Source: Patescibacteria group bacterium (GTDB lineage: Bacteria; Patescibacteriota; Minisyncoccia; Moranbacterales; GWC2-37-73). Taken from it: a stretch of DNA of 40,158 bases. The notes beneath the pieces are model-generated. The model was not told the origin of the DNA. It ran no database searches and was given only the letters and a program-made list of their open reading frames with translations. Within the stretch, counting starts at the first letter, position 1. Each line of letters opens with the position of its first letter. Of this stretch, positions 4,695-25,879 are shown piece by piece. Location: contig DASVYU010000021.1 of assembly GCA_036391995.1 (NCBI GenBank), positions 1 through 40,158 on the forward strand. The letters are read 5' to 3'. Position numbers and translations under genes: made by a program.

Positions 4695-5537
4695 ATGGAA
4701 GAACAGTTTATTCAGCAGGCTGGGGAAAGAAATGGAAACAATAGAATTTTTAAGAGGTTTTTTGAAATCTTCAAGCCTGGTTTTTTAGCTGAAAATTTAG
4801 ACACGATAGACTCTGGCAAGACTTGGAAATTTTGGTTTTTGAGCAACACTTTAGTTGCAATAGTTTTGACAATTATAATAGGATATACCATAAACAAAGG
4901 CATTGATGAAACTGCCAAAGAATTCCTTTTGAAATATCCTAATGCGAAAATATTTGTCAGTGGTGGAAAATTAAGCACTGAGGGCATAGACGAACCAATA
5001 TTTGAAAAATCAGACGATGGATCTGTGTTTGTTTTGGATACGAAAAATCAGAAATACGATGAAACTGTCCTTAGTGATTACAAAAAAGGCGTTTTTATCT
5101 CTTCTGACAAGATTTACAACAAAAAAAGCTCGATAGAAACGCAACAGTATGATATTTCAAAAATAAACAGGAATTTTTCTTTTACTCAAAAAGATCTCCA
5201 ATCAAAAGTTTGGATCTTGAAAGTATTTTTTATAGGCGTAGGCATATTTTTCGGATGGATTTATTTGAATGGTCTTAGATTGATCAGTGCTTTCTGGTGG
5301 GCTTTTTGGTTCTGGCTTCTTGCTGTTATCATGAAAATAGAAGGGGTTGGTTACAAGAATATATATTTTGCCGTGCTTAACTTTTATATCATTCCTCTGG
5401 TAATTTCGCTAGTATTGACGCTGTTTGGTTTGAATGTTGCATTTTTGACAACAATAATATTTTCAATCTTGTTTGTTGTAAATTTCTTGTTTATGAAAAA
5501 AAATCAAAAACAAAAAGAGGTTGTTATTAAAGAGTAA
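4695..5537 (+). CDS. Polytopic membrane protein, hypothetical
   Basis: One TM segment after about 50 aa, a soluble loop of about 120 aa, then 4-5 TM segments (WILKVFFIGVGIFFGWIYL...WWAFWFWLLAVIM...). No family could be assigned with confidence. Confidence 0.5.
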   Translation: MEEQFIQQAGERNGNNRIFKRFFEIFKPGFLAENLDTIDSGKTWKFWFLSNTLVAIVLTIIIGYTINKGIDETAKEFLLKYPNAKIFVSGGKLSTEGIDEPIFEKSDDGSVFVLDTKNQKYDETVLSDYKKGVFISSDKIYNKKSSIETQQYDISKINRNFSFTQKDLQSKVWILKVFFIGVGIFFGWIYLNGLRLISAFWWAFWFWLLAVIMKIEGVGYKNIYFAVLNFYIIPLVISLVLTLFGLNVAFLTTIIFSILFVVNFLFMKKNQKQKEVVIKE

Positions 5538-5611
5538 AATGGGGCGTAAAGAAGTTTTTATTTTATCTTTAAATTAGTTACAATTAATTTATAAATTTTT
5601 AAAACAATAAA

Positions 5612-6646
5612 ATGGAAGAAGGAAATATGGCAAATCCATTCGGAGCGGAGAATGCTTCAGAGGCGCAAACAAGCAGCGAGCAAAAACCTGAGCAAATCGT
5701 GGCGCCGGTTTCACAGGCTGCTGAAGTAAAGTATGCTGGTTTTTGGATTAGGTTGTTAGCTACTATTATAGATTTATTTCTTCCCGGAATTGTTGGAGTT
5801 ATTTTGGGATTTGTGGTTTTGTATATTTCACCAAAAAGTACTGGCAGTATTTATTTGACTATTACAAAGCTTATCATTATATGGGTTTACTATATTTGGA
5901 TGACTAACAAATATCAGGCAACGTTAGGCAAGATGATATTTGGATTAGGGGTTCAAAATAATGAGGGGAAAAAAGTTACTTTGGGGAAAATAGTGCTCAG
6001 GGAAACTATAGGGAAAATTCTTTCATGGATAACTCTTTCAATTGGTTTCATAATGGCTGGATTCACGAGGAGAAAGCAGGCTTTGCATGACAAAATAGCA
6101 GGTACAGTAGTTGTATATAAAGATAGCGGATTCCAGTCTTATTCCGGGCTGGTTTTGGGAGGATTTATTTTGGGAATATTTTCTTTTATTCCAGGTCTCG
6201 GTTTGTTTATTGGAGTTTTGGCTATTATATTTAGCGCAATTGCTTTTTTGGATGCAAAAAAGAATAAAAAACCCGGTAGGCGCATTGCAATAGCTGGAAT
6301 AATTCTTGGAATATTGGGAATAATGTTTACTATAGCACTTTATTCTTCATTGTATTATTTTGGATTTAAGGCTAAATCTGGCCCATTTACTGATATTAAA
6401 ATAGAAACAACAAAAACTATTTTGCAAAATACAGCAGGCTCCTTGGAGCTTTATAAAAAGGAACATGGAAACTATCCTGCTTCCATAAAGGATTTGCAAT
6501 CTGATAACAAAAGCGTTTTTGGAGAAGATTTTTATCAACAGCCACTATATTACAAAGTTTCTGGCGATGGACAATCATACGAGTTAAGAAGTATTGGTCC
6601 AGATGGGCAATATGGAACAGTGGATGATATTATTTTTGGCAAGTAA
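5612..6646 (+). CDS. Fusion protein: RDD-family membrane domain + DUF4190-like TM hairpins + C-terminal type II secretion pseudopilin (GspG-like) globular domain
   Basis: RDD-like N-terminus (YAGFWIRLLATIIDLFLPGIVGVILG). DUF4190-like segments (GLVLGGFILGIFSF...GRRIAIAGIILGILGIMF). The C-terminus matches the GspG C-domain pattern (LELYKKEHGNYPASIKDLQS...YELRSIGPDGQYGTVDDIIF) but has no prepilin leader. The start may be ATG 5627. Confidence 0.6.
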   Translation: MEEGNMANPFGAENASEAQTSSEQKPEQIVAPVSQAAEVKYAGFWIRLLATIIDLFLPGIVGVILGFVVLYISPKSTGSIYLTITKLIIIWVYYIWMTNKYQATLGKMIFGLGVQNNEGKKVTLGKIVLRETIGKILSWITLSIGFIMAGFTRRKQALHDKIAGTVVVYKDSGFQSYSGLVLGGFILGIFSFIPGLGLFIGVLAIIFSAIAFLDAKKNKKPGRRIAIAGIILGILGIMFTIALYSSLYYFGFKAKSGPFTDIKIETTKTILQNTAGSLELYKKEHGNYPASIKDLQSDNKSVFGEDFYQQPLYYKVSGDGQSYELRSIGPDGQYGTVDDIIFGK

Positions 6647-6672
6647 TAAGAAAATACAACTTTATAAACATC

Positions 6673-6702
6673 AAAACCGCTTATTGCAGAGCGGTTTTGT
6701 GT
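6673..6702 (+). terminator. Rho-independent terminator, potentially bidirectional
   Basis: AAAACCGC-ttattgcaga-GCGGTTTT hairpin immediately after the 5612 gene and before the convergent RAYT gene. Confidence 0.5.
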
Positions 6703-7262
6703 TATATGAAGATATTTTCAATGTTGTTTCTGTCACGTTCCCACATTTTGGGATTTGTCTGGATGTATTCGCGGATTTTATTTAACGATTCATCATTACG
6801 GATAATGTGGTCGTAGAAACGTGGTTGCCAGGAGAAATATGTATTGTGCATGGTAGCAAATTTTTTAACGCCCACCTTGAATCCTCTAATAACGGACGCC
6901 AGATTTTCTGATTGTGGTCCAAATTTATTACCATTCACGTGTAGAGACGCAAAATTTTGCGTCTCTACATTTAAATGATTGATGCCATTCCAATTAATTT
7001 TTATAATTCCATGCATGTGGTTTGGCATGATGACAAATTCATCCAAATTTATAAATGGAAAATGGTTTGGAATTTTTTTCCAATATTCTTCTGCAATCTT
7101 TCCAATTTCCGATAGAATAATTTTTCCATCAACAATATCACCGAAAAAATGTTCGCGATCACGCGTACAAATTGTGATGAAATACATTCCATCTTGTGAA
7201 TAATTATATCCTGCCAATCTTGAAGATTTTATTGCGTATTTGTTTTTGAATTTATCATGCAT
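6702..7262 (-). mobile_element. REP-associated tyrosine transposase (RAYT), IS200/IS605-type Y1 HUH transposase
   Basis: HUH motif (MPNHMHGII) and a catalytic Tyr region (WQPRFYDHIIRNDESLNKIREYIQTNP). The N-terminus is typical of RAYTs (RLAGYNYSQDGMYFITICTRDR). The likely start is the ATG at 7262; the ORF tool extended it to 7301. Flanked by REP-like palindromes. Confidence 0.75.
6941..6970. repeat. REP-like 30-bp perfect palindrome, copy A, lying in-frame inside the RAYT CDS
   Basis: tgtagagacgcaaaattttgcgtctctaca, preceded by attcacgtg. It encodes NVETQNFASLHV within the transposase. Confidence 0.8.
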
Positions 7263-7383: not shown

Positions 7384-7941
7384 TCAGGCGCGGGAAACGT
7401 ACTCTCCTTTTTCCGTGTTGATGATTAACTTGTCTCCTTCGTTGATGAAAAGAGGGGCGCTGACCTTGAGTCCGGTTTCCATGGTCACAACTTTGCCGCC
7501 TGTACCAGCAGTGTCGCCCTTGATTCCTGGAGGAGCTTCCACGACTGTCAGAGTAACTTTGATCGGCAGTTCGATGTTTACTGGATTGCCATTGAAGTTT
7601 AGTACAGTTACTTCGGTGCCTTCCAGAAGATAAAGATAGGCGTCGCCAATCACATCTTTGCTGAAAGTGAACTGCTCATAAGAGCTCATGTCCATGAAGA
7701 CATAACCCTCTGGTTCGTTGTAGAGATATTGAGCTTTGGTTTTGCTCATATCGGCCTCATCTACTTTTTCTGACCCCTGGAAAGTCTTGTCCAACACAGC
7801 TCCAGTCAGCAGGTTTTTGAGCTTGGTACGCAGCACTGCGCCTGCGCGTCCGGTCTTGGAATGCTCATGAGTGAGGACAACATAAGGCTGTCCTTCCCAG
7901 AGAATATTCTTGCCGGATTTGATATCGCTAAGTCCTAGCAT
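7384..7941 (-). CDS. efp: Elongation factor P
   Basis: A full EF-P three-domain sequence (KTGRAGAVLRTKLKNLLTGAVLDKTF...). Confidence 0.9.
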   Translation of the reverse strand: MLGLSDIKSGKNILWEGQPYVVLTHEHSKTGRAGAVLRTKLKNLLTGAVLDKTFQGSEKVDEADMSKTKAQYLYNEPEGYVFMDMSSYEQFTFSKDVIGDAYLYLLEGTEVTVLNFNGNPVNIELPIKVTLTVVEAPPGIKGDTAGTGGKVVTMETGLKVSAPLFINEGDKLIINTEKGEYVSRA

Positions 7942-8042
7942 AGTACTTTTATGTTATGCTAATCCACGAATTTAACACTAATCTGCGAATTACGAATTCG
8001 CAATTAGTGGATTGGCATTTATTTGCGGATTAGTATCTTTGC
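7942..8042. promoter_or_regulatory. Paralogous dyad-symmetric intergenic element E1, upstream of efp
   Basis: Shares a core with 8250-8370 and 8854-8971: atgctaatcNacgaatNNaacactaatctNcgaatt ... aattcgcaNttNgNggattggcatttattNgNggattag. It ends 10-25 nt before the start codon and carries no SD. Confidence 0.6.
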
Positions 8043-9857: not shown

Positions 9858-10019
9858 GATCTTTAGAGTATTTTTTGTAGTGCGAAAAAATATAAAAAAT
9901 ACTCTGGAAGTCAATTTCCAGGCTAGCAATCTTTACAACTGAATTAATGAAATGAAAGGAGGGAAAAGGATTTGAGATTGTAAAATCCAAGAGAGGACTG
10001 AGTGGAAGTTAAACATCAA

Positions 10020-11981
10020 CGACAAGAAAAGGAGAGTAAGATGAAAGAAATGATTCCGCATTTGCCCTCATGGATCCCGTACCTGCTGTTTCTTCTGCCC
10101 GTTGCCTTCTGCATCGTCTTCTACCGTCTCGTGATCCGGATCGGCGGAGTGGTCATCATTCCGGAAGATTCCATAGGGATCGTGAACAAGAAGTTTGTGC
10201 TCTGGGGGACAAACAAGAACTTGCCCGACGGCAAGATCATCGCCCTCAATGGCGAGGCTGGCTGGCAGGCCGACGCGCTTGCTCCCGGTGTGCATTACCG
10301 GAAGTGGCCATGGCAGTACGAGATCAAGATTGAGAAGATGTTCGTCGTGCCGGCTGGTAATATCGCTACTGTGTATGCCAGAGACGGCGTCGCGATCGAG
10401 GGAGGCCGAGTTCTCGGCAGGAAGGTTAACTGCGACACATTCCAGGATGCCAGGAAGTTTCTGGTAAACGGAGGGGAGCGCGGTCAGCAGATCGCCTTCA
10501 TTCCCCAGGGAACATACCGTATCAACACCGCTCTGTTTGAAGTAAAGACGGAAAAGGTCTACGAAGTTCCGAGCGGGAAAGTCGGCGTTATCACGACCAA
10601 GGATGGCAAAGAACTGCCCAAGGACGAGATCGCCGGTGAGAAAGTAGATGGGCACGATTCCTACCAGAACGGCCAGGCTTTTATGGACAATGGCGGCTGG
10701 AAAGGGCGTCAGGCGCAGGTCATTCTTGCCGGACGGTATTTTATCAACCCGTTCTTTGCCGAAGTGGAACTGGTCGACATGACGGAGGTTCAGATCGCGC
10801 ATGTAGGCGTCGTCATCCAGCTCTACGGCAAGGCTGGTACCGATGTTTCCGGTGATGATTTCCAGCATGCCAGCCTGGTTGGACAGGGAGAGAAGGGCGT
10901 CTGGAGGGACCCACTTGACCCTGGTCTCTATGCGATCAACCCCTGTACCCACAAGGTTGTCCAGGTGCCCACGCAAAACATCGTCCTTAACTGGGCCGAT
11001 GATACCTTTGAATCGCACAGGTATGACGAAAAACTGAGCTCGATCACTGTCCGTTCCATGGACGGTTTCAGCTTCACGCTGAACGTCAGCCAGATCATCC
11101 ACATTTCCCGTAACTATGCTTCCTACGTGATTGCGCAGTTCGGCAGCGTGGAGAGTCTGGTCAACAACGTGTTGTCGCCGCTGATCGGAAACTACTTTCG
11201 AAACAGTGCGCAGAACAGCAATGTGATCTCTTTCCTGAGCGAGCGCAACCAGCGCCAGGATCAGGCCAAGGACAAGATCCAGGAAGTTTTGACCAAGCAT
11301 CATGTCACTTCGGTCGACACGCTGATTGGCGACATTAATCCGCCGGAAGAACTGCTCGAACCGCTCAAACAGAAACAGATCGCCGAGCAGCAGAAGCTCA
11401 CCTTCGCTGTCCAGCAGGAAGCTCAGGTGGAACGGCAAAAACTGGAACAATCTAGAGCCATGGCTGAAACCCAGGCGAGCGTCGTTTCTTCGGAGCGCCA
11501 GGTGGCGATCAAAAAGTTCGGTGCTGAAGCTGTCCAGGAAGAAGCCAAGGGTACGGCCGGCGCCAAGACGATCAACGCCAAGGCGGACGCTGAGGTGCTG
11601 AAAGTCGTCGGTATGGCCGAGGCTGAGAAAATCAAGGCTGTCGGTGGTGCCGAAGCGGATGTTATCAAGCAGAAGATTGATTCCATGGAAGCCGGTAACT
11701 ATGCCCTGGTTCTCGTGGCGGAACATCTGGCTAAAGCTGGGGTGCCCTTGGTACCGCAGATCACGGCTGGTGGAAGTGGTGGTGCTGAAGGCGGGCTGGT
11801 CAATGTCCTCCTCGGAACGCTGCTTCACGACAACCTGAAAAAGGCGGCTGTAACACCAGCTGCGGCTCCGCAGGCTGCCCATCTCGAAGCCGTAGCAGCT
11901 GCTGAACCGGCTGCAGCACCCGCTGCCTCGGCGTCCGAAGAGAGGAATGAGCCGGCTGCAGGCGAATCTGTCGAGGAATAA
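10020..11981 (+). CDS. Flotillin-like SPFH protein (YqiK/FloT family), in a high-GC island
   Basis: N-terminal TM (IPYLLFLLPVAFCIVFY), an SPFH core, and a flotillin-type C-terminal AEAE region (VVGMAEAEKIKAVGGAEADVIKQKIDSMEAGNYALVLVAEHLAKAGVPLVPQI). Strong SD (aaaaggagag) before ATG 10020. Local GC about 57%. The ORF tool start at 10002 is 6 codons longer. Confidence 0.75.
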   Translation, partial: RQEKESKMKEMIPHLPSWIPYLLFLLPVAFCIVFYRLVIRIGGVVIIPEDSIGIVNKKFVLWGTNKNLPDGKIIALNGEAGWQADALAPGVHYRKWPWQYEIKIEKMFVVPAGNIATVYARDGVAIEGGRVLGRKVNCDTFQDARKFLVNGGERGQQIAFIPQGTYRINTALFEVKTEKVYEVPSGKVGVITTKDGKELPKDEIAGEKVDGHDSYQNGQAFMDNGGWKGRQAQVILAGRYFINPFFAEVELVDMTEVQIAHVGVVIQLYGKAGTDVSGDDFQHASLVGQGEKGVWRDPLDPGLYAINPCTHKVVQVPTQNIVLNWADDTFESHRYDEKLSSITVRSMDGFSFTLNVSQIIHISRNYASYVIAQFGSVESLVNNVLSPLIGNYFRNSAQNSNVISFLSERNQRQDQAKDKIQEVLTKHHVTSVDTLIGDINPPEELLEPLKQKQIAEQQKLTFAVQQEAQVERQKLEQSRAMAETQASVVSSERQVAIKKFGAEAVQEEAKGTAGAKTINAKADAEVLKVVGMAEAEKIKAVGGAEADVIKQKIDSMEAGNYALVLVAEHLAKAGVPLVPQITAGGSGGAEGGLVNVLLGTLLHDNLKKAAVTPAAAPQAAHLEAVAAAEPAAAPAASASEERNEPAAGESVEE

Positions 11982-11997: not shown

Positions 11998-12031
11998 CTG
12001 TCGAGGGGTGGAGCGGATTCGCTTCACCCCT
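11998..12031 (+). other. Compound hairpin between the flotillin gene and the small gene
   Basis: GAGGGGTG-gagcggattcgctt-CACCCCTC; an 8-bp stem enclosing an inner AGCG/CGCT hairpin. Confidence 0.4.
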
Positions 12032-12056
12032 CATTTCATAGGAGGAAAATCTCGCA

Positions 12057-12508
12057 TGAAAAGAGCTCCATTGTTTTGCAAGGGCGTAATCATCGTCTGT
12101 GAAGACTTCCGACTTCATCAGCGCCCTGATGGAAGCAATGTCGTGGCGGAGCTCGTCAAAAAGCTTGGCTACGATTGCGACATCATTACGCGTGGGGGAG
12201 GGATTCTTGATCTCGTTTCTCCTGAAGACGTTGGAGCGGGATTCGACAGATCAATGATGCGTGACATCAAGGTGGCGGAAATTCTTCATCAGGCCGAGGA
12301 AATCACGATCATCGGTCATGAGGACTGCCGCGCCTACGGTTACCGGCATATGCCCACAATGCAGGCTGAACTGAATCTGATTCATGCTGACATGCGTCGT
12401 GGCGCCAGCGTGCTGAAACGTATCTTTCCGAAAGCGAACGTATCTCTCCAGGTTGCAAGACTTCTGGCGGGATCTGTCGACAAGTTTGAACTTACGAAAC
12501 TTGCGTAA
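12057..12508 (+). CDS. Small hypothetical protein with beta-carbonic-anhydrase-like (Cab-type) C-x-D-x-R ... H-x-x-C motifs
   Basis: VIIVCEDFRL ... ITRGGG ... IIGHEDCRAYG. The spacing roughly resembles small beta-class carbonic anhydrases, but the assignment is tentative. SD ggagga before ATG 12057. High GC. Confidence 0.3.
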
Positions 12509-12530
12509 GAATCGACATGCAATTGCAATG

Positions 12531-12561
12531 CCCTACTGAGCAATCGGTAGGGTGTTTTTTT
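12531..12561 (+). terminator. Rho-independent terminator
   Basis: CCCTAC-tgagcaatcg-GTAGGG followed by a T7 run. Confidence 0.6.
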
Positions 12562-12659
12562 ATTCAATAAATATTGACAGATCATTTGATTTATGATACG
12601 TTTTTAAGTTCGCAGTTCGTTGTTATTATCAAAAAACACTCCAAAGGGGGAGCGACCAA

Positions 12660-13781
12660 ATGGCAAACTTGATCAAAGTGTGGTGGAAAAGAAGTTTTTT
12701 CAGAAGAATGTGGCGGGAAACATATGGACATCACTCTTCTGGAAACAATGAATATGTCCAGATGGGCAGCACTAAAGTTGAGAGATCAAGGGAATTGGAG
12801 GGAGAATCTCAGATAAAGTTGTCTGAGCCTCCACAGTCATCTCCCAAACCGATGACTGAATCGGAATTCAGATGTCTGCTCGGAGGAATCAGTGACTTCA
12901 AAGAGCTGAAAAGCCAGTATGACAGCTGTCCTTCACAATTTGATCCGATTATTGGCGAGAGACTGAAAAAAATTCTTTCCAACGTCACGGATATTGAAGA
13001 GTTGGAAGATGCGAGTCAGCTGGACTTCGGCGAATTCAACGAAATTATTGATGAACGATACGAGAAACTCCTCCCTGCTTTTCTTAGGGATGCATCGCTT
13101 GAAGACATCGAAGCGCGTTATGAATATTGCCCTGATCAGGAGCGTTTCGGCGAGCAGATGAAAAAGCGCTATGCAGAACTTCTGGATGAAATTGATTCAT
13201 TTGATGATCTCGAAGAACGCAGAAAGGCATGCCCGGAAGATTTCGCTGAGCTTTTTCGCGTCCCGTATCAGAAGCTTCTCTACGCGATTAGTTCGGTCGA
13301 AGAGCTTGATGATTATTTCGACAATTGTCCGGATGAGTTTGAAGATTTCTATCTAGGACCATATGACAAGTTGCTTGCTGAATTAGAAACGCTTGAAGAT
13401 CTGCAGGGGCTGTATAGAGAGTCCCATGAACACTTCGGCCCATTGTATGGCTACCATTACAAGAGGCTTCTAGAAAAGGAAGAATCTCTTGAAGGCCTTG
13501 AAGGAACATACAATGATTGCAAGGAGGATTTTGATGGACTCATAATCGTTCGCTATTCGCAGCTCCTTTGGAAAGTCGATGGCATAGATGAACTAAGTAA
13601 TCGACTTGATGAATGTCCTGCGGCGTTCAATGGTCTGATATATGCCCGTTGTCGCGAGCTTGTATTCCAGAAAATGCCGAGAATGTCGGCGAGCGAGCGC
13701 GATTCGCTGTGTGAAGACATTGCTGATGATTTCAAACCGATTGCCGTCGCTTGCCGCGATCTGTTGAATTTAGAGAAATAA
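12660..13781 (+). CDS. Novel tandem-repeat protein: 8 repeats of about 33 aa
   Basis: Repeats such as SLEDIEARYEYCPDQERFGEQMKKRYAELLDEI / DSFDDLEERRKACPEDFAELFRVPYQKLLYAI / SSVEELDDYFDNCPDEFEDFYLGPYDKLLAEL give the consensus s-h-E-E/D-L-x3-Y-x2-C-P-x2-F-x7-Y-x-K-L-L. The N-terminus is basic and aromatic (MANLIKVWWKRSFFRRMW). SD aaggggga upstream. Confidence 0.6.
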   Translation: MANLIKVWWKRSFFRRMWRETYGHHSSGNNEYVQMGSTKVERSRELEGESQIKLSEPPQSSPKPMTESEFRCLLGGISDFKELKSQYDSCPSQFDPIIGERLKKILSNVTDIEELEDASQLDFGEFNEIIDERYEKLLPAFLRDASLEDIEARYEYCPDQERFGEQMKKRYAELLDEIDSFDDLEERRKACPEDFAELFRVPYQKLLYAISSVEELDDYFDNCPDEFEDFYLGPYDKLLAELETLEDLQGLYRESHEHFGPLYGYHYKRLLEKEESLEGLEGTYNDCKEDFDGLIIVRYSQLLWKVDGIDELSNRLDECPAAFNGLIYARCRELVFQKMPRMSASERDSLCEDIADDFKPIAVACRDLLNLEK

Positions 13782-13802
13782 TATTTTCCGAAATCGGAAG
13801 CA

Positions 13803-13833
13803 GCCCTACTGGGAAAATAGTAGGGCTTTTTTA
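13803..13833 (+). terminator. Rho-independent terminator
   Basis: AGCCCTAC-tgggaaaata-GTAGGGCT followed by T6; the same CCCTAC/GTAGGG stem family as the terminator at 12531. Confidence 0.65.
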
Positions 13834-16200: not shown

Positions 16201-17268
16201 ATGGAAAACGAAGACAAAAAGGCAGAAGGGAAAGTTGAGGAGAAAAAAGCAGCATCGACGACATCAGCATCTCCGGCTTGGAGCGACAAGAAGAAAACCT
16301 GCAAAGACAAGCTGTGTGCTTTCTGGGACAAGCATAAGAAAACTGTCTTGGCTGTGCTGGTACTTCTGGTTTTGGTGGGTGGCAGCTTCGCATATAAATA
16401 TTTTCCAAAAAGAACTGACATTGGTCCTGCAGCGGCAAAAACAAAATTGACTGACTTCATTAACAAGAATCTTCTGCAGCCAGGCACGACTGCTGACATA
16501 ACTGAAATCGTGAAAGAAAACGGTCTCTATAAGGTGACGGTCAGCGTGGGATCGCAGAAAATCACCGCTTATTTGACTGAAGATGGCAGCAAGTTCTTTC
16601 CTCAAGTGATTGATCTCGATGCTGCTCCCAAGCAAGACAATCAACAGGCAGCGAATGAAAAAAGCGCACCTGATCAAAAACAGGATGTTCCGGAAGTGAA
16701 ACTTTTCGTGATGAGCTACTGCCCATATGGACTTCAAATGGAAAAAGGATTGTTGCCTGCCATTGAATCTCTTGGTAGCAAGATCAAATTCAGTTTGGAA
16801 TTTGTTGATTACACGCTGCATGGACAGAAGGAAGTTGATGAGAACACTAGACAATACTGTATCCAGAAAACTCAGCCGGCTAAATTGGACAGCTACCTTA
16901 AATGCTTCTGGAAAGATGCTTCCGGCGCGTCTGATGCTTGCATGAAATCTGTTGGCATCAATACTGCCCAGGTTTCCAGCTGCGTAAGCGATACCAATAA
17001 GCAGTTTGCTCTAACAGAGAAAGACTACGGTATCAACAAGGATGACAATGATAAATACGGTGTGCAAGGATCTCCTACGCTTGTGGTCAATGGTACGACT
17101 GTTTCCTCTGGGCGTGATAGCGCTAGCGTGCTGAAAGCTATCTGCAGCGGATTTAATAATGCCCCAAAAGAATGTTCAGCTGCGCTTTCTTCTACTGCGC
17201 CAGCCCCAGGTTTTGATAGCCAGGGAGCAGGCAGCGGATCTGCAAGCTCTGCAGCATCTTGCCACTGA
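16201..17268 (+). CDS. Membrane-anchored DsbA-family thioredoxin-fold protein with a degenerate CPYG active site
   Basis: TM anchor (VLAVLVLLVLVGG). A thioredoxin_4/DsbA-like C-domain with FVMSYCPYG, i.e. a single Cys where CxxC is expected, and a cis-Pro motif VQGSPTLVVNG. Confidence 0.6.
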   Translation: MENEDKKAEGKVEEKKAASTTSASPAWSDKKKTCKDKLCAFWDKHKKTVLAVLVLLVLVGGSFAYKYFPKRTDIGPAAAKTKLTDFINKNLLQPGTTADITEIVKENGLYKVTVSVGSQKITAYLTEDGSKFFPQVIDLDAAPKQDNQQAANEKSAPDQKQDVPEVKLFVMSYCPYGLQMEKGLLPAIESLGSKIKFSLEFVDYTLHGQKEVDENTRQYCIQKTQPAKLDSYLKCFWKDASGASDACMKSVGINTAQVSSCVSDTNKQFALTEKDYGINKDDNDKYGVQGSPTLVVNGTTVSSGRDSASVLKAICSGFNNAPKECSAALSSTAPAPGFDSQGAGSGSASSAASCH

Positions 17269-24037: not shown

Positions 24038-25879
24038 ATGAAAAACAAAATAACCGTGCCCATAAGCGGTATGCATTGCCGCTCGTGCGAGATTCTGGTT
24101 GAGGAAAATCTTTTAGAGATTCCTGATGTTGAACGCAGTGTAGTTAATTATAAAAAAGGTACTGCTGAAGTACATTTCAAAGACCGGGAGCCGAACATGC
24201 GAGAAATCGAAAAAGCGATCCGCGAAGCTGGATATTCCATTGGTACCAATGGAAAAAAACCACTGCTCAGCAAAAATCCTGAAGACTACAAGGATTTAGG
24301 AATAGCTCTGATTTTTCTGGTGGGCATATATATCATTCTGAAAAATTTGGGATTCTCGGGAATAAATCCGGGAAACATTTCCAATCCATCTAGCTTGGGA
24401 GTGGTGCTTTTGGTTGGTTTGACTGCGGGAGTGTCATCATGCATGGCTCTTGTGGGTGGACTGATTCTTGGGATATCCGCGCGCCATGCGGAAAAGCATC
24501 CGGAAGCTACTCCTGCGCAGAAATTCAGACCGCATCTTTTCTTCAATTTGGGAAGAATTGGCGGGTATGCTCTTCTGGGTGGCTTGCTTGGGATGATTGG
24601 AAGTGCGGTGCAATTTTCAGGAGGGACACTTGGATTGCTTACGATCGCGGTGGGAGTCGTGATGCTCATGCTTGGAATGAAACTGATTGGTATTTTTCCA
24701 CGCATGGAAAATGGCGGACTGACTTTGCCAAAATCCGTGGCTAAATTTTTCGGAATCAAAAAGGACACCAGAGAATATAGCCATCGCAGTTCCATGATTA
24801 CCGGGGCGCTGACTTTCTTTTTGCCTTGCGGATTTACGCAGGCTATGCAGCTTTATGCTGTTAGCACCGGAAGCTTTATGCGCGGAGCATTGATCATGGG
24901 AGTGTTTGCACTTGGAACTGCGCCAGGACTCCTTGGTGTGGGAGGACTAACTTCTGTCGTTAAGGGAATATTCGCGCAGCGTTTTTTCAAGTTTGCAGGA
25001 ATTTTGGTGATTTTCCTGGCTATGTTCAACATTGCCAATGGCTACAATCTGACAGGTTGGCAAGTTGCTCCGGGTGCACCGCTTGCATCTCAAGCCAGTG
25101 ATTCTAATGTAAAATTGGAAAACGGCGTGCAAGTCGTTTCTATGACGGAAAGTTCCAGGGGATATGCCCCAAACAGTTTCACGGTCAGAAAAGGAGTGCC
25201 TGTGCGTTGGGAAATAGATGCTCAGGATCCATATTCTTGCGCTTCAAGTCTGATTATGAACAAGATGGGCATAAGAAAGACATTGGTTTCAGGAAAAAAT
25301 GTCGTTGAATTTACTCCGACTGAAACAGGAAAAATACCTTTTTCTTGTTCCATGGGTATGTATACAGGATCATTTACGGTTGTGGATGAAAATGGTAATG
25401 GTTCTGGTGTGTCCCAGGGCTCAAATTATGCACCTTCAAGCTCACCATCTGGAACTTGCGGCGGAGGGGCGGCTACTGCAAATGGCCCTGCTACAAGCAG
25501 CTGTGGCGGCTCAGGCGGTGGTTGTGGAGGGTGTGGTGGAGCTGCAAGACAGGTAACACCAACTCAAGGAACAACCCAAACAACTCAAGCGGCAAATAGC
25601 GCCAGTGCACAGGTTGTAAATACTATATATACCTACAGCCAAGACATCCAACCAAACACATTCAAGGTGAAAGCGGGGCAACCTGTTAAGTTTATTGTGG
25701 ATGTTAAGGAAAATGGAGTTGGTTGCATGAGTACGATCATGATTCCTGGTCTTTATAATCAGCCGCAGCAACTCATTGCCGGCAACAAGATAGAGATGGA
25801 TTTTACTCCGACCAAACCTGGAACATATCAGATCACATGCGCCATGGGCGTGCCTAGGGGAACGTTGACTGTAGAATGA
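24038..25879 (+). CDS. HMA-domain membrane permease (DsbD_2/TauE-like TM core) fused to two C-terminal cupredoxin-like domains; putative copper handling
   Basis: N-terminal HMA (ISGMHCRSCE), a 6-8 TM core (LVGLTAGVSSCMALVGG ... FFLPCGFTQAM), a Gly/Cys-rich linker (CGGSGGGCGGCGG), and two beta-sandwich domains ending FSCSMGMYTGSFTVV and ITCAMGVPRGTLTV. Confidence 0.6.
   Translation: MKNKITVPISGMHCRSCEILVEENLLEIPDVERSVVNYKKGTAEVHFKDREPNMREIEKAIREAGYSIGTNGKKPLLSKNPEDYKDLGIALIFLVGIYIILKNLGFSGINPGNISNPSSLGVVLLVGLTAGVSSCMALVGGLILGISARHAEKHPEATPAQKFRPHLFFNLGRIGGYALLGGLLGMIGSAVQFSGGTLGLLTIAVGVVMLMLGMKLIGIFPRMENGGLTLPKSVAKFFGIKKDTREYSHRSSMITGALTFFLPCGFTQAMQLYAVSTGSFMRGALIMGVFALGTAPGLLGVGGLTSVVKGIFAQRFFKFAGILVIFLAMFNIANGYNLTGWQVAPGAPLASQASDSNVKLENGVQVVSMTESSRGYAPNSFTVRKGVPVRWEIDAQDPYSCASSLIMNKMGIRKTLVSGKNVVEFTPTETGKIPFSCSMGMYTGSFTVVDENGNGSGVSQGSNYAPSSSPSGTCGGGAATANGPATSSCGGSGGGCGGCGGAARQVTPTQGTTQTTQAANSASAQVVNTIYTYSQDIQPNTFKVKAGQPVKFIVDVKENGVGCMSTIMIPGLYNQPQQLIAGNKIEMDFTPTKPGTYQITCAMGVPRGTLTVE

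Follow-up and report, generated by a model that had tools for sequence, protein, structure and literature searches.

The window analyzed here, which is the entire 40,158-bp contig of a metagenome-assembled genome labeled “Patescibacteria group bacterium” by NCBI, carries on its forward strand a gene for a tandem-repeat protein of 373 amino acids (aa), downstream of a gene for an SPFH (stomatin/prohibitin/flotillin/HflKC) membrane protein with a Band_7 domain. The repeat gene is a complete open reading frame (ORF) at 12660..13781, the exact coordinates given by a first-pass annotation, and a Shine-Dalgarno-like AAGGGGGAG can be read at 12644..12652 (+), 7 nt 5′ of its ATG. The surroundings are ordinary chromosomal housekeeping genes: ribosomal protein S6, SSB, and EF-P lie on the other strand 5′ of the SPFH gene, which is followed in order by a carbonic anhydrase-like (CA-like) gene, the repeat gene, and the genes for UvrB, a thioredoxin-like protein, UvrA, UvrC, and a DsbD-family protein. 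An Rfam scan of the window returned no RNA families. An origin in a defense system or a phage was considered and rejected given these flanks and the lack of any PADLOC or PHROG match to the repeat protein.

The repeat array and its predicted fold

At the protein level, the repeat is genuine. Autocorrelation of residues 71 to 373 (BLOSUM62) gives a single strong peak of 0.68 at lag 32, with an echo at lag 64, while the largest value reached at any lag by 500 shuffled controls is -0.26. To avoid circularity, a hidden Markov model (HMM) of the unit was trained on ten distant proteins only, leaving out the window protein and its orthologs; this model scores the window protein at 75.4 bits, against a maximum of 6.4 bits for 1,000 shuffles, and places eight units in register (79-106, 111/125-138, 146-175, 180-207, 212-239, 245-271, 276-303, and 309-334). 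The same eight units drawn by hand, together with a ninth, degenerate one and an N-terminal capping helix that flank them, are given in Table 1. Six units have exactly 32 aa and the other three, units 2, 3, and 9, have 36, 33, and 36 aa; the consensus pooled from 97 units of 17 proteins is SLEELEERYNNCPEEFEPLILARYQELL followed by a 4-residue linker. No tandem repeat exists at the DNA level in the gene, so the units must be old and diverged, and a recent DNA-level duplication was rejected on the same ground. The count of eight tandem units in the first-pass annotation is thus borne out, while its unit of about 33 aa gives way to a modal period of 32 aa. Its motif Y-x2-C-P-x2-F occurs only once in the strict form but five times if relaxed to [YFWLR]-x2-C-[PK]-x2-F, and the Cys-Pro (CP) that it took to be invariant is found in five units only, being CK in unit 7 and replaced in units 2 and 6, which have no Cys in that position.

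An AlphaFold2 model built from a four-sequence alignment predicts an alpha-solenoid. Mean pLDDT is 77.7 and pTM 0.60, with block means of 83 to 94 from residue 70 to about 330, and the model contains twenty helices in which short ones (8 to 10 residues) alternate with long ones (15 to 20 residues), two per unit. These are stacked tandem helix-turn-helix units at high predicted confidence, by which an alpha-solenoid is defined. The capping helix spans residues 67 to 75, and ahead of it are a low-confidence N-terminal helix (residues 2 to 22) and a disordered stretch with pLDDT below 50 (residues 16 to 61). When the predicted helix boundaries are set against the unit alignment, the first conserved column (S/D/T/G) directly precedes helix A in 8/8 units and, with the E three residues on, makes the classical S-x-x-E capping box (“SLEEL”) of that helix. 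The Cys falls in the short turn ahead of helix B in each unit; in five of the six Cys-bearing units helix B begins two residues after the Cys and one after the Pro, and unit 3 is the exception because of a two-residue insertion. Across the family, Cys occupies its column in 70 of the 87 units (97 in total) that have a residue there, with S, A, and M as the main substitutes, and the next column is Pro in 56/87. All four of the closest sequences keep the Cys at five positions of the repeat core.

Conservation is not uniform along the array. Units 3 to 5 are the most conserved, at 66 to 73% identity versus 44 to 59% elsewhere; 14 of the 32 positions of unit 4 are invariant, and the CPDQERFGE of unit 3 is invariant among the four closest sequences but for the D, which is G in one. 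The whole protein has a pI of 4.5 and the solenoid one of 4.3, and the strongly basic N-terminal 24 residues stand apart from both (Table 1). No transmembrane segment was found in the protein (maximum 19-residue Kyte-Doolittle mean, 0.71), nor any obvious N-terminal signal sequence, and from its sequence the protein reads as probably cytoplasmic and soluble. The basic, aromatic WWKRSFFRRMW at the N terminus is peculiar to the window sequence; what the four closest sequences conserve there is only W18, E20, Y22, and G23, i.e., a W18-x-E20-x-Y22-G23 core. Membrane association of this segment is plausible.

Table 1. Features of the repeat gene and its vicinity in the window (nucleotide positions; residue numbers are those of the repeat protein)
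Feature	Position	Strand	Remarks
SPFH/Band_7 membrane protein	10002..11981	+	659 aa listed; Pfam Band_7 E = 2.4e-30
Terminator-like hairpin	12527..12556	+	13-bp stem and T-run; between Band_7/CA-like pair and repeat gene
Repeat-protein ORF	12660..13781	+	Complete, 373 aa and stop; orthologs 41-49% identical, length and repeat register kept
N-terminal basic/aromatic segment, aa 1-24	12660..12731	+	pI 11.6; predicted helix, low confidence
Linker, aa 25-66	12732..12857	+	Predicted disordered; 30% mean identity among orthologs
N-terminal capping helix of predicted solenoid, aa 67-76	12858..12887	+	EFRCLLGG; resembles end of helix B
Repeat unit 1, aa 77-108	12888..12983	+	C90-P91
Repeat unit 2, aa 109-144	12984..13091	+	Long 36-aa variant; LPAFL extension; no Cys
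Repeat unit 3, aa 145-177	13092..13190	+	C157-P158, inside CPDQERFGE
Repeat unit 4, aa 178-209	13191..13286	+	C191-P192; most conserved unit
Repeat unit 5, aa 210-241	13287..13382	+	C223-P224
Repeat unit 6, aa 242-273	13383..13478	+	S-H replaces C-P
Repeat unit 7, aa 274-305	13479..13574	+	C287-K288
Repeat unit 8, aa 306-337	13575..13670	+	C319-P320
Degenerate C-terminal unit or cap, aa 338-373	13671..13778	+	C351 and C365 conserved among orthologs
Terminator-like hairpin	13802..13827	+	Directly 3′ of repeat gene; stem CCCTACTG...GTAGGG
Neighboring window proteins			NCBI accessions HEX8974329, HEX8974336, HEX8974339

Rarity of the family and comparison with known repeats

The repeat family is very rare: about a dozen sequences are known, and each comes from an uncultured organism. 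Among 5.8 billion clusters, a word-indexed search turned up three homologs (41 to 48% identity). When 1.84 billion representatives were searched exhaustively with a HMMER profile, 14 proteins reached E <= 0.001, of which five reached E <= 1e-30. Pattern and tblastn scans with the ortholog alignment returned nothing from GTDB (185,579 species, one genome each) or from JGI metagenome contigs. For unit 4, a degenerate DNA pattern made by hand (C-P-[DE]-[DE]-F...P-Y-Q-K-L-L) hit one JGI contig, that of the already-known locus L008, and none among viral contigs. A two-unit repeat profile found nothing by word-index search, a kind of search that seems ill-suited to short profiles, and the distant relative P0007 as query retrieved only itself. 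The distant matches (P0007 to P0016) are short proteins with two to nine copies of the window-type unit; those with a readable context are Patescibacteria-like and co-occur in samples with the close homologs.

Two homologs deserve comment. P0004 (L005, 8001-9416) has 471 aa and 11 units and resembles P0003 with units 1 to 3 duplicated in tandem; the array thus grows by multi-unit block duplication. The gene call for P0006 (248 aa; L008, 7656-8747) is too short: the frame is already open at 7656, with a first repeat unit, EYASCPEQFNELVLKRFQKL, ahead of the called start. This upstream region overlaps a called 75-aa gene (7783-8010) with a small, apparently membrane-anchored product. P0006, one of the two homologs that lack an SPFH neighbor, also seems to lack the N-terminal W-x-E-x-Y-G peptide.

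The fold class is known, but sequence and fold searches did not place the protein in any named repeat family. At E <= 1, a Pfam-A hmmscan of the window protein gave only Tricorn_C1 (0.077) and LPD39 (0.24), both below cut-off, and an NCBIfam search, like those of PADLOC and PHROG, gave no match. TPR, Sel1, HEAT, and PPR are absent from the 25 Pfam families most frequently matched across the 17 family members. Sequence profile searches of the PDB with the full-length and two-unit alignments yielded nothing at E < 0.05, and Foldseek of the model against the PDB and viral predicted structures yielded nothing at E <= 0.001, with TM-scores of about 0.2. The lengths characteristic of the established classes (TPR, 34 aa; Sel1, 36 to 44 aa; HEAT, about 37 to 47 aa; ARM, about 42 aa; PPR, 35 aa) do not accommodate a 32-aa period. 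Among the closest known systems are the generic two-helix alpha-solenoid repeats, i.e., HEAT/ARM-like repeats, HEAT-like PBS repeats, and designed helical repeat proteins. The unrecognized repeat class seen by the first-pass annotation, which recognized no TPR, Sel1, HEAT, or PPR, stands at the level of the sequence family, and no confident Pfam hit, which that annotation had named as refuting it, turned up; the repeat is a variant within the well-known alpha-solenoid class.

Weak matches of the distant relatives to VPS51, Zw10, COG5, and TRCF were rejected, as they are summed over stretches none of which is individually significant, and we regard the weak Pfam matches of these relatives as probably compositional, to the E/L-rich helix A. 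The nine-unit relative P0007, on a 1.8-kb contig, scores 29.9 bits against DUF2396 (PF09654; cut-off, 21), likewise only through summed weak stretches; positions 73 to 111 of that profile may hold one unit-like segment. The window protein has no DUF2396 match at E <= 1.

SPFH genes beside the repeat gene

The first-pass annotation had suggested that the repeat protein could be a scaffold partner of the adjacent flotillin. A link to an SPFH protein gains support, in that four of the six independent contexts that could be read have a Band_7 gene no more than two genes from the repeat gene, but the window's SPFH protein is not a canonical flotillin, as its match to the FloT model has an E value of only 0.17. 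It belongs instead to a long family (about 570 to 680 aa) that scores poorly against both FloT and HflC and has an N-terminal extension with GEAGWQAD and WPWQY motifs. This family has at least 502 tblastn-confirmed loci or species in GTDB, spread over many phyla and including an archaeal metagenome-assembled genome of the Methanoregulaceae (L053). The listed GTG start of the window gene is probably 13 codons early, since its orthologs and the gene call in L003 (646 aa) begin at M14 (10041).

The gene order differs among the four contexts. In the window, and in L003 and L004 with it, the order is Band_7, CA-like gene, repeat gene; in L001 it is Band_7, repeat gene; in L002, repeat gene, Band_7; and in L005 and L006, repeat gene, NfeD, Band_7, so that the repeat gene is directly 5′ of an NfeD-flotillin pair. 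The window, L001, and L002 have mutually unrelated flanks. L002 and L005 are syntenic, with MurJ upstream and LepA downstream, yet they carry different SPFH proteins: that of L002 is a 634-aa protein of the long type, 53% identical to the window's, while that of L005 is a 568-aa flotillin-type protein (20% identity; FloT model E = 2.6e-77) accompanied by NfeD. From the sequences, this looks like a nonorthologous SPFH replacement at one site. At the same site, L005 also carries a 174-aa protein without assignment. The repeat gene thus sits beside all three long-type SPFH genes of the clade and beside the replacement SPFH gene of a fourth genome, which is unlikely to be due to chance; for a genome assumed to have some 1,000 genes and up to three SPFH genes, chance placement within two genes of one of them would be expected in about 1% of cases. 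As a control, in 80 loci of other genomes the most frequent neighbor family of the long SPFH protein is found at 3 loci at most. In total, we consider the genomic evidence for a link to SPFH proteins to be moderate.

The ORF between the SPFH and repeat genes in the window (12008-12508) encodes 166 aa, or 150 aa in other gene calls, and matches Pro_CA_2 (“putative carbonic anhydrase”) below threshold, at 24.5 bits where the cut-off is 30. This ORF is confined to the window's own lineage, including L003 and L004, and does not occur in the other SPFH-repeat loci.

The SPFH and repeat genes do not appear to be cotranscribed, because a hairpin, and in the window also another gene, separates them. 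L001 shows, in sequence, a terminator, a near-consensus promoter, the repeat gene, and a second terminator, and perfect or near-perfect TTGACA-17-TATAAT promoters lie about 90 bp upstream of the repeat gene in L002 and L005. The two hairpins of the window share their stem (CCCTACTG...GTAGGG, with a T-run), which is present in the window in these two copies only, versus an expectation of 0; the shared stem could mean a terminator duplication or the insertion of the gene as a cassette downstream of the Band_7 operon.

The obvious point of comparison is NfeD, the classical operon partner of prokaryotic SPFH1, SPFH2, and SPFH5 proteins, the remaining SPFH subfamilies having no known partner (PMC2636767). 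As with NfeD, SPFH genes lie beside the repeat gene in most of its readable contexts, so that its product may be an accessory of an SPFH assembly. NfeD itself, a membrane protein whose soluble domain has an OB fold (PMC4208085), is typically cotranscribed with its SPFH gene. The repeat protein differs in having its own promoter and terminator, in being soluble and all-alpha as far as can be predicted, with no hydrophobic segment, and in being confined to a few Patescibacteria sequences; the two share no sequence similarity, and the NfeD models of Pfam do not match the window protein.

Possible roles of the repeat protein

Based on these observations, we tentatively posit that the protein is a lineage-specific cytoplasmic adaptor or scaffold, an alpha-solenoid working with an SPFH membrane-microdomain assembly in a small clade of Patescibacteria, although our confidence in this role falls a little short of calling it probable. 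In this model, nine helix-turn-helix units of 32 to 36 residues, eight clear and one degenerate, would stack as a rod or superhelix, in which a Ser, Asp, or Thr would cap helix A, the Cys-Pro would make the tight turn into helix B, and conserved Leu, Phe, and Tyr would form the core. A flexible linker of about 40 residues would tether the solenoid to the short basic/aromatic N-terminal helix, which we suppose to bind either the membrane surface or a partner. The central units 3 to 5 would be the probable binding surface because they are the most conserved, and through them or otherwise the adaptor would act with the SPFH scaffold, the bulk of which would have to face the cytoplasm.

Several observations weigh against this proposal. 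The positive-inside rule gives contradictory topologies among orthologs of the SPFH protein. In two of the six contexts, L007 (P0005) and L008 (P0006; a 220-kb contig), there is no SPFH gene within 8 kb, and the independent arrangements that support the pairing number only three. The repeat gene looks monocistronic from its sequence context, with no operon-level coupling to the SPFH gene. In 80 long-SPFH loci of other genomes, the repeat protein is never found within 6 kb, and given the breadth of that family, the repeat protein is not a general SPFH partner. Finally, Cys is an unusual residue for a purely structural turn or cap, and it forms the second most conserved column of the unit.

Could the protein instead be a lineage-specific alpha-solenoid unrelated to SPFH, serving some other cytoplasmic client, with the adjacency being inherited synteny? 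This is the chief competing explanation, and we consider it somewhat unlikely. The two contexts without an SPFH neighbor, the repeat gene's own promoter and terminators, and the existence of a widespread SPFH family without the repeat protein are all consistent with it, as are the unrelated contexts of the distant relatives P0012 and P0008 (UvrD/KsgA and alanyl-tRNA synthetase). What speaks for the SPFH adaptor instead is that the pairing persists through three gene orders with otherwise unrelated flanks and through the swap of one SPFH type for another, and that the SPFH gene has no other recurrent neighbor in 80 genomes. A different objection concerns the fold rather than the partner: the protein might belong to an established helical repeat family (TPR, Sel1, HEAT, ARM, or PPR/HPR-like) but be so highly diverged that sequence-profile searches have missed it, and one distant relative does have a weak Arm_3 match (E = 0.016). 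We find this quite improbable, given that no repeat model in Pfam or NCBIfam matches the window protein at E <= 1 and that TPR, Sel1, HEAT, and PPR are not among the 25 Pfam families most often matched across the 17 family members. The signature itself (S-x-x-E ... C-P-E-x-F ... R-Y-x-E-L-L over 32 aa) is unlike those of TPR (34), Sel1 (36), PPR (35), and HEAT/ARM (about 40), and the acidic pI speaks against the RNA-binding role of a PPR or HPR protein.

The remaining question is whether the Cys(-Pro) row is there for its chemistry, as transient heme ligands resembling heme-regulatory motifs (HRMs), as thiolate metal ligands, or as a redox thiol stripe, in which case the protein would serve as a sensor or buffer and might report to the SPFH assembly. 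We judge this improbable and, in its most specific form, very improbable; that form would have a regular stripe of reactive Cys, one per 32-residue unit on the helix A-B turns, act in sensing or buffering redox state, heme, or soft metals, in a protein tethered to, and modulating, an SPFH membrane-microdomain cage. The prevalence of Cys in its column, the Pro that so often follows, and the invariance of the five core Cys among the closest sequences all favor some such chemistry. The CP dipeptide defines the classical HRM, in which the Cys ligates heme iron and the Pro stabilizes it (PMC11442138), and the window protein, with five copies, resembles the HRM proteins Irr, IRP2, HO-2, and Bach1 in having several CP dipeptides per polypeptide (PMC11442138, PMC2742820). 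Thiol-redox genes also lie near the SPFH-repeat pair in two loci, which may be coincidence: the thioredoxin-like gene (16201-17268) and the DsbD_2-HMA-cupredoxin fusion of the DsbD family (24038-25879) in the window, and, in L001, a DsbD-thioredoxin fusion (5209-6945) two genes upstream of the SPFH gene. Unlike in HRMs, however, the CP here belongs to a regular repeat, in a confidently folded helix-helix turn with acidic residues next to it, and it is missing from three of the eight clear units, with Ser, Ala, or Met as substitutes in others. Classical HRMs lie in flexible segments and usually have a hydrophobic residue next. Heme metabolism is limited in Patescibacteria, which as a rule are not known to possess heme biosynthesis or respiratory chains. 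With one Cys per unit, the distance between successive thiols would be roughly the rise of the solenoid, too great for tetrahedral metal sites shared between units, and a metal-binding role is thus geometrically doubtful. None of these arguments is decisive.

A structural account of the same column is that the turn position is the start of helix B, which is a sufficient reason for a small residue followed by Pro to be conserved there, and on the predicted structure the role of the Cys-Pro may well be purely structural. There is a precedent in the cysteine-containing (CC-type) leucine-rich repeats, in which a Cys is fixed in each solenoid unit and serves packing rather than chemistry, although these are beta-alpha solenoids of 23 to 29 aa with no sequence or fold relationship to the repeat described here. 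The turn position does not account for Cys being so frequent a choice at the inter-helix turn.

The reach of these results is limited, as the family comprises about a dozen sequences from uncultured organisms only and its role is proposed from sequence, model, and neighborhood. A family entry is merited, even if the result will not surprise a specialist. Protein designers may take an interest in this addition to the alpha-solenoid catalog, a compact unit of 32 residues whose capping rules are clear and whose Cys-Pro turn is conserved. A Cys-stripe sensor, if it proved true, would represent a new type of accessory to SPFH proteins and would put Cys-Pro motifs in a new structural setting. More generally, NfeD aside, few accessory proteins have been described for prokaryotic SPFH/flotillin scaffolds, and most subfamilies are without a known partner. 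A soluble repeat adaptor that accompanies two types of SPFH protein would therefore be a testable lead on what SPFH assemblies organize in the reduced cells of Patescibacteria.

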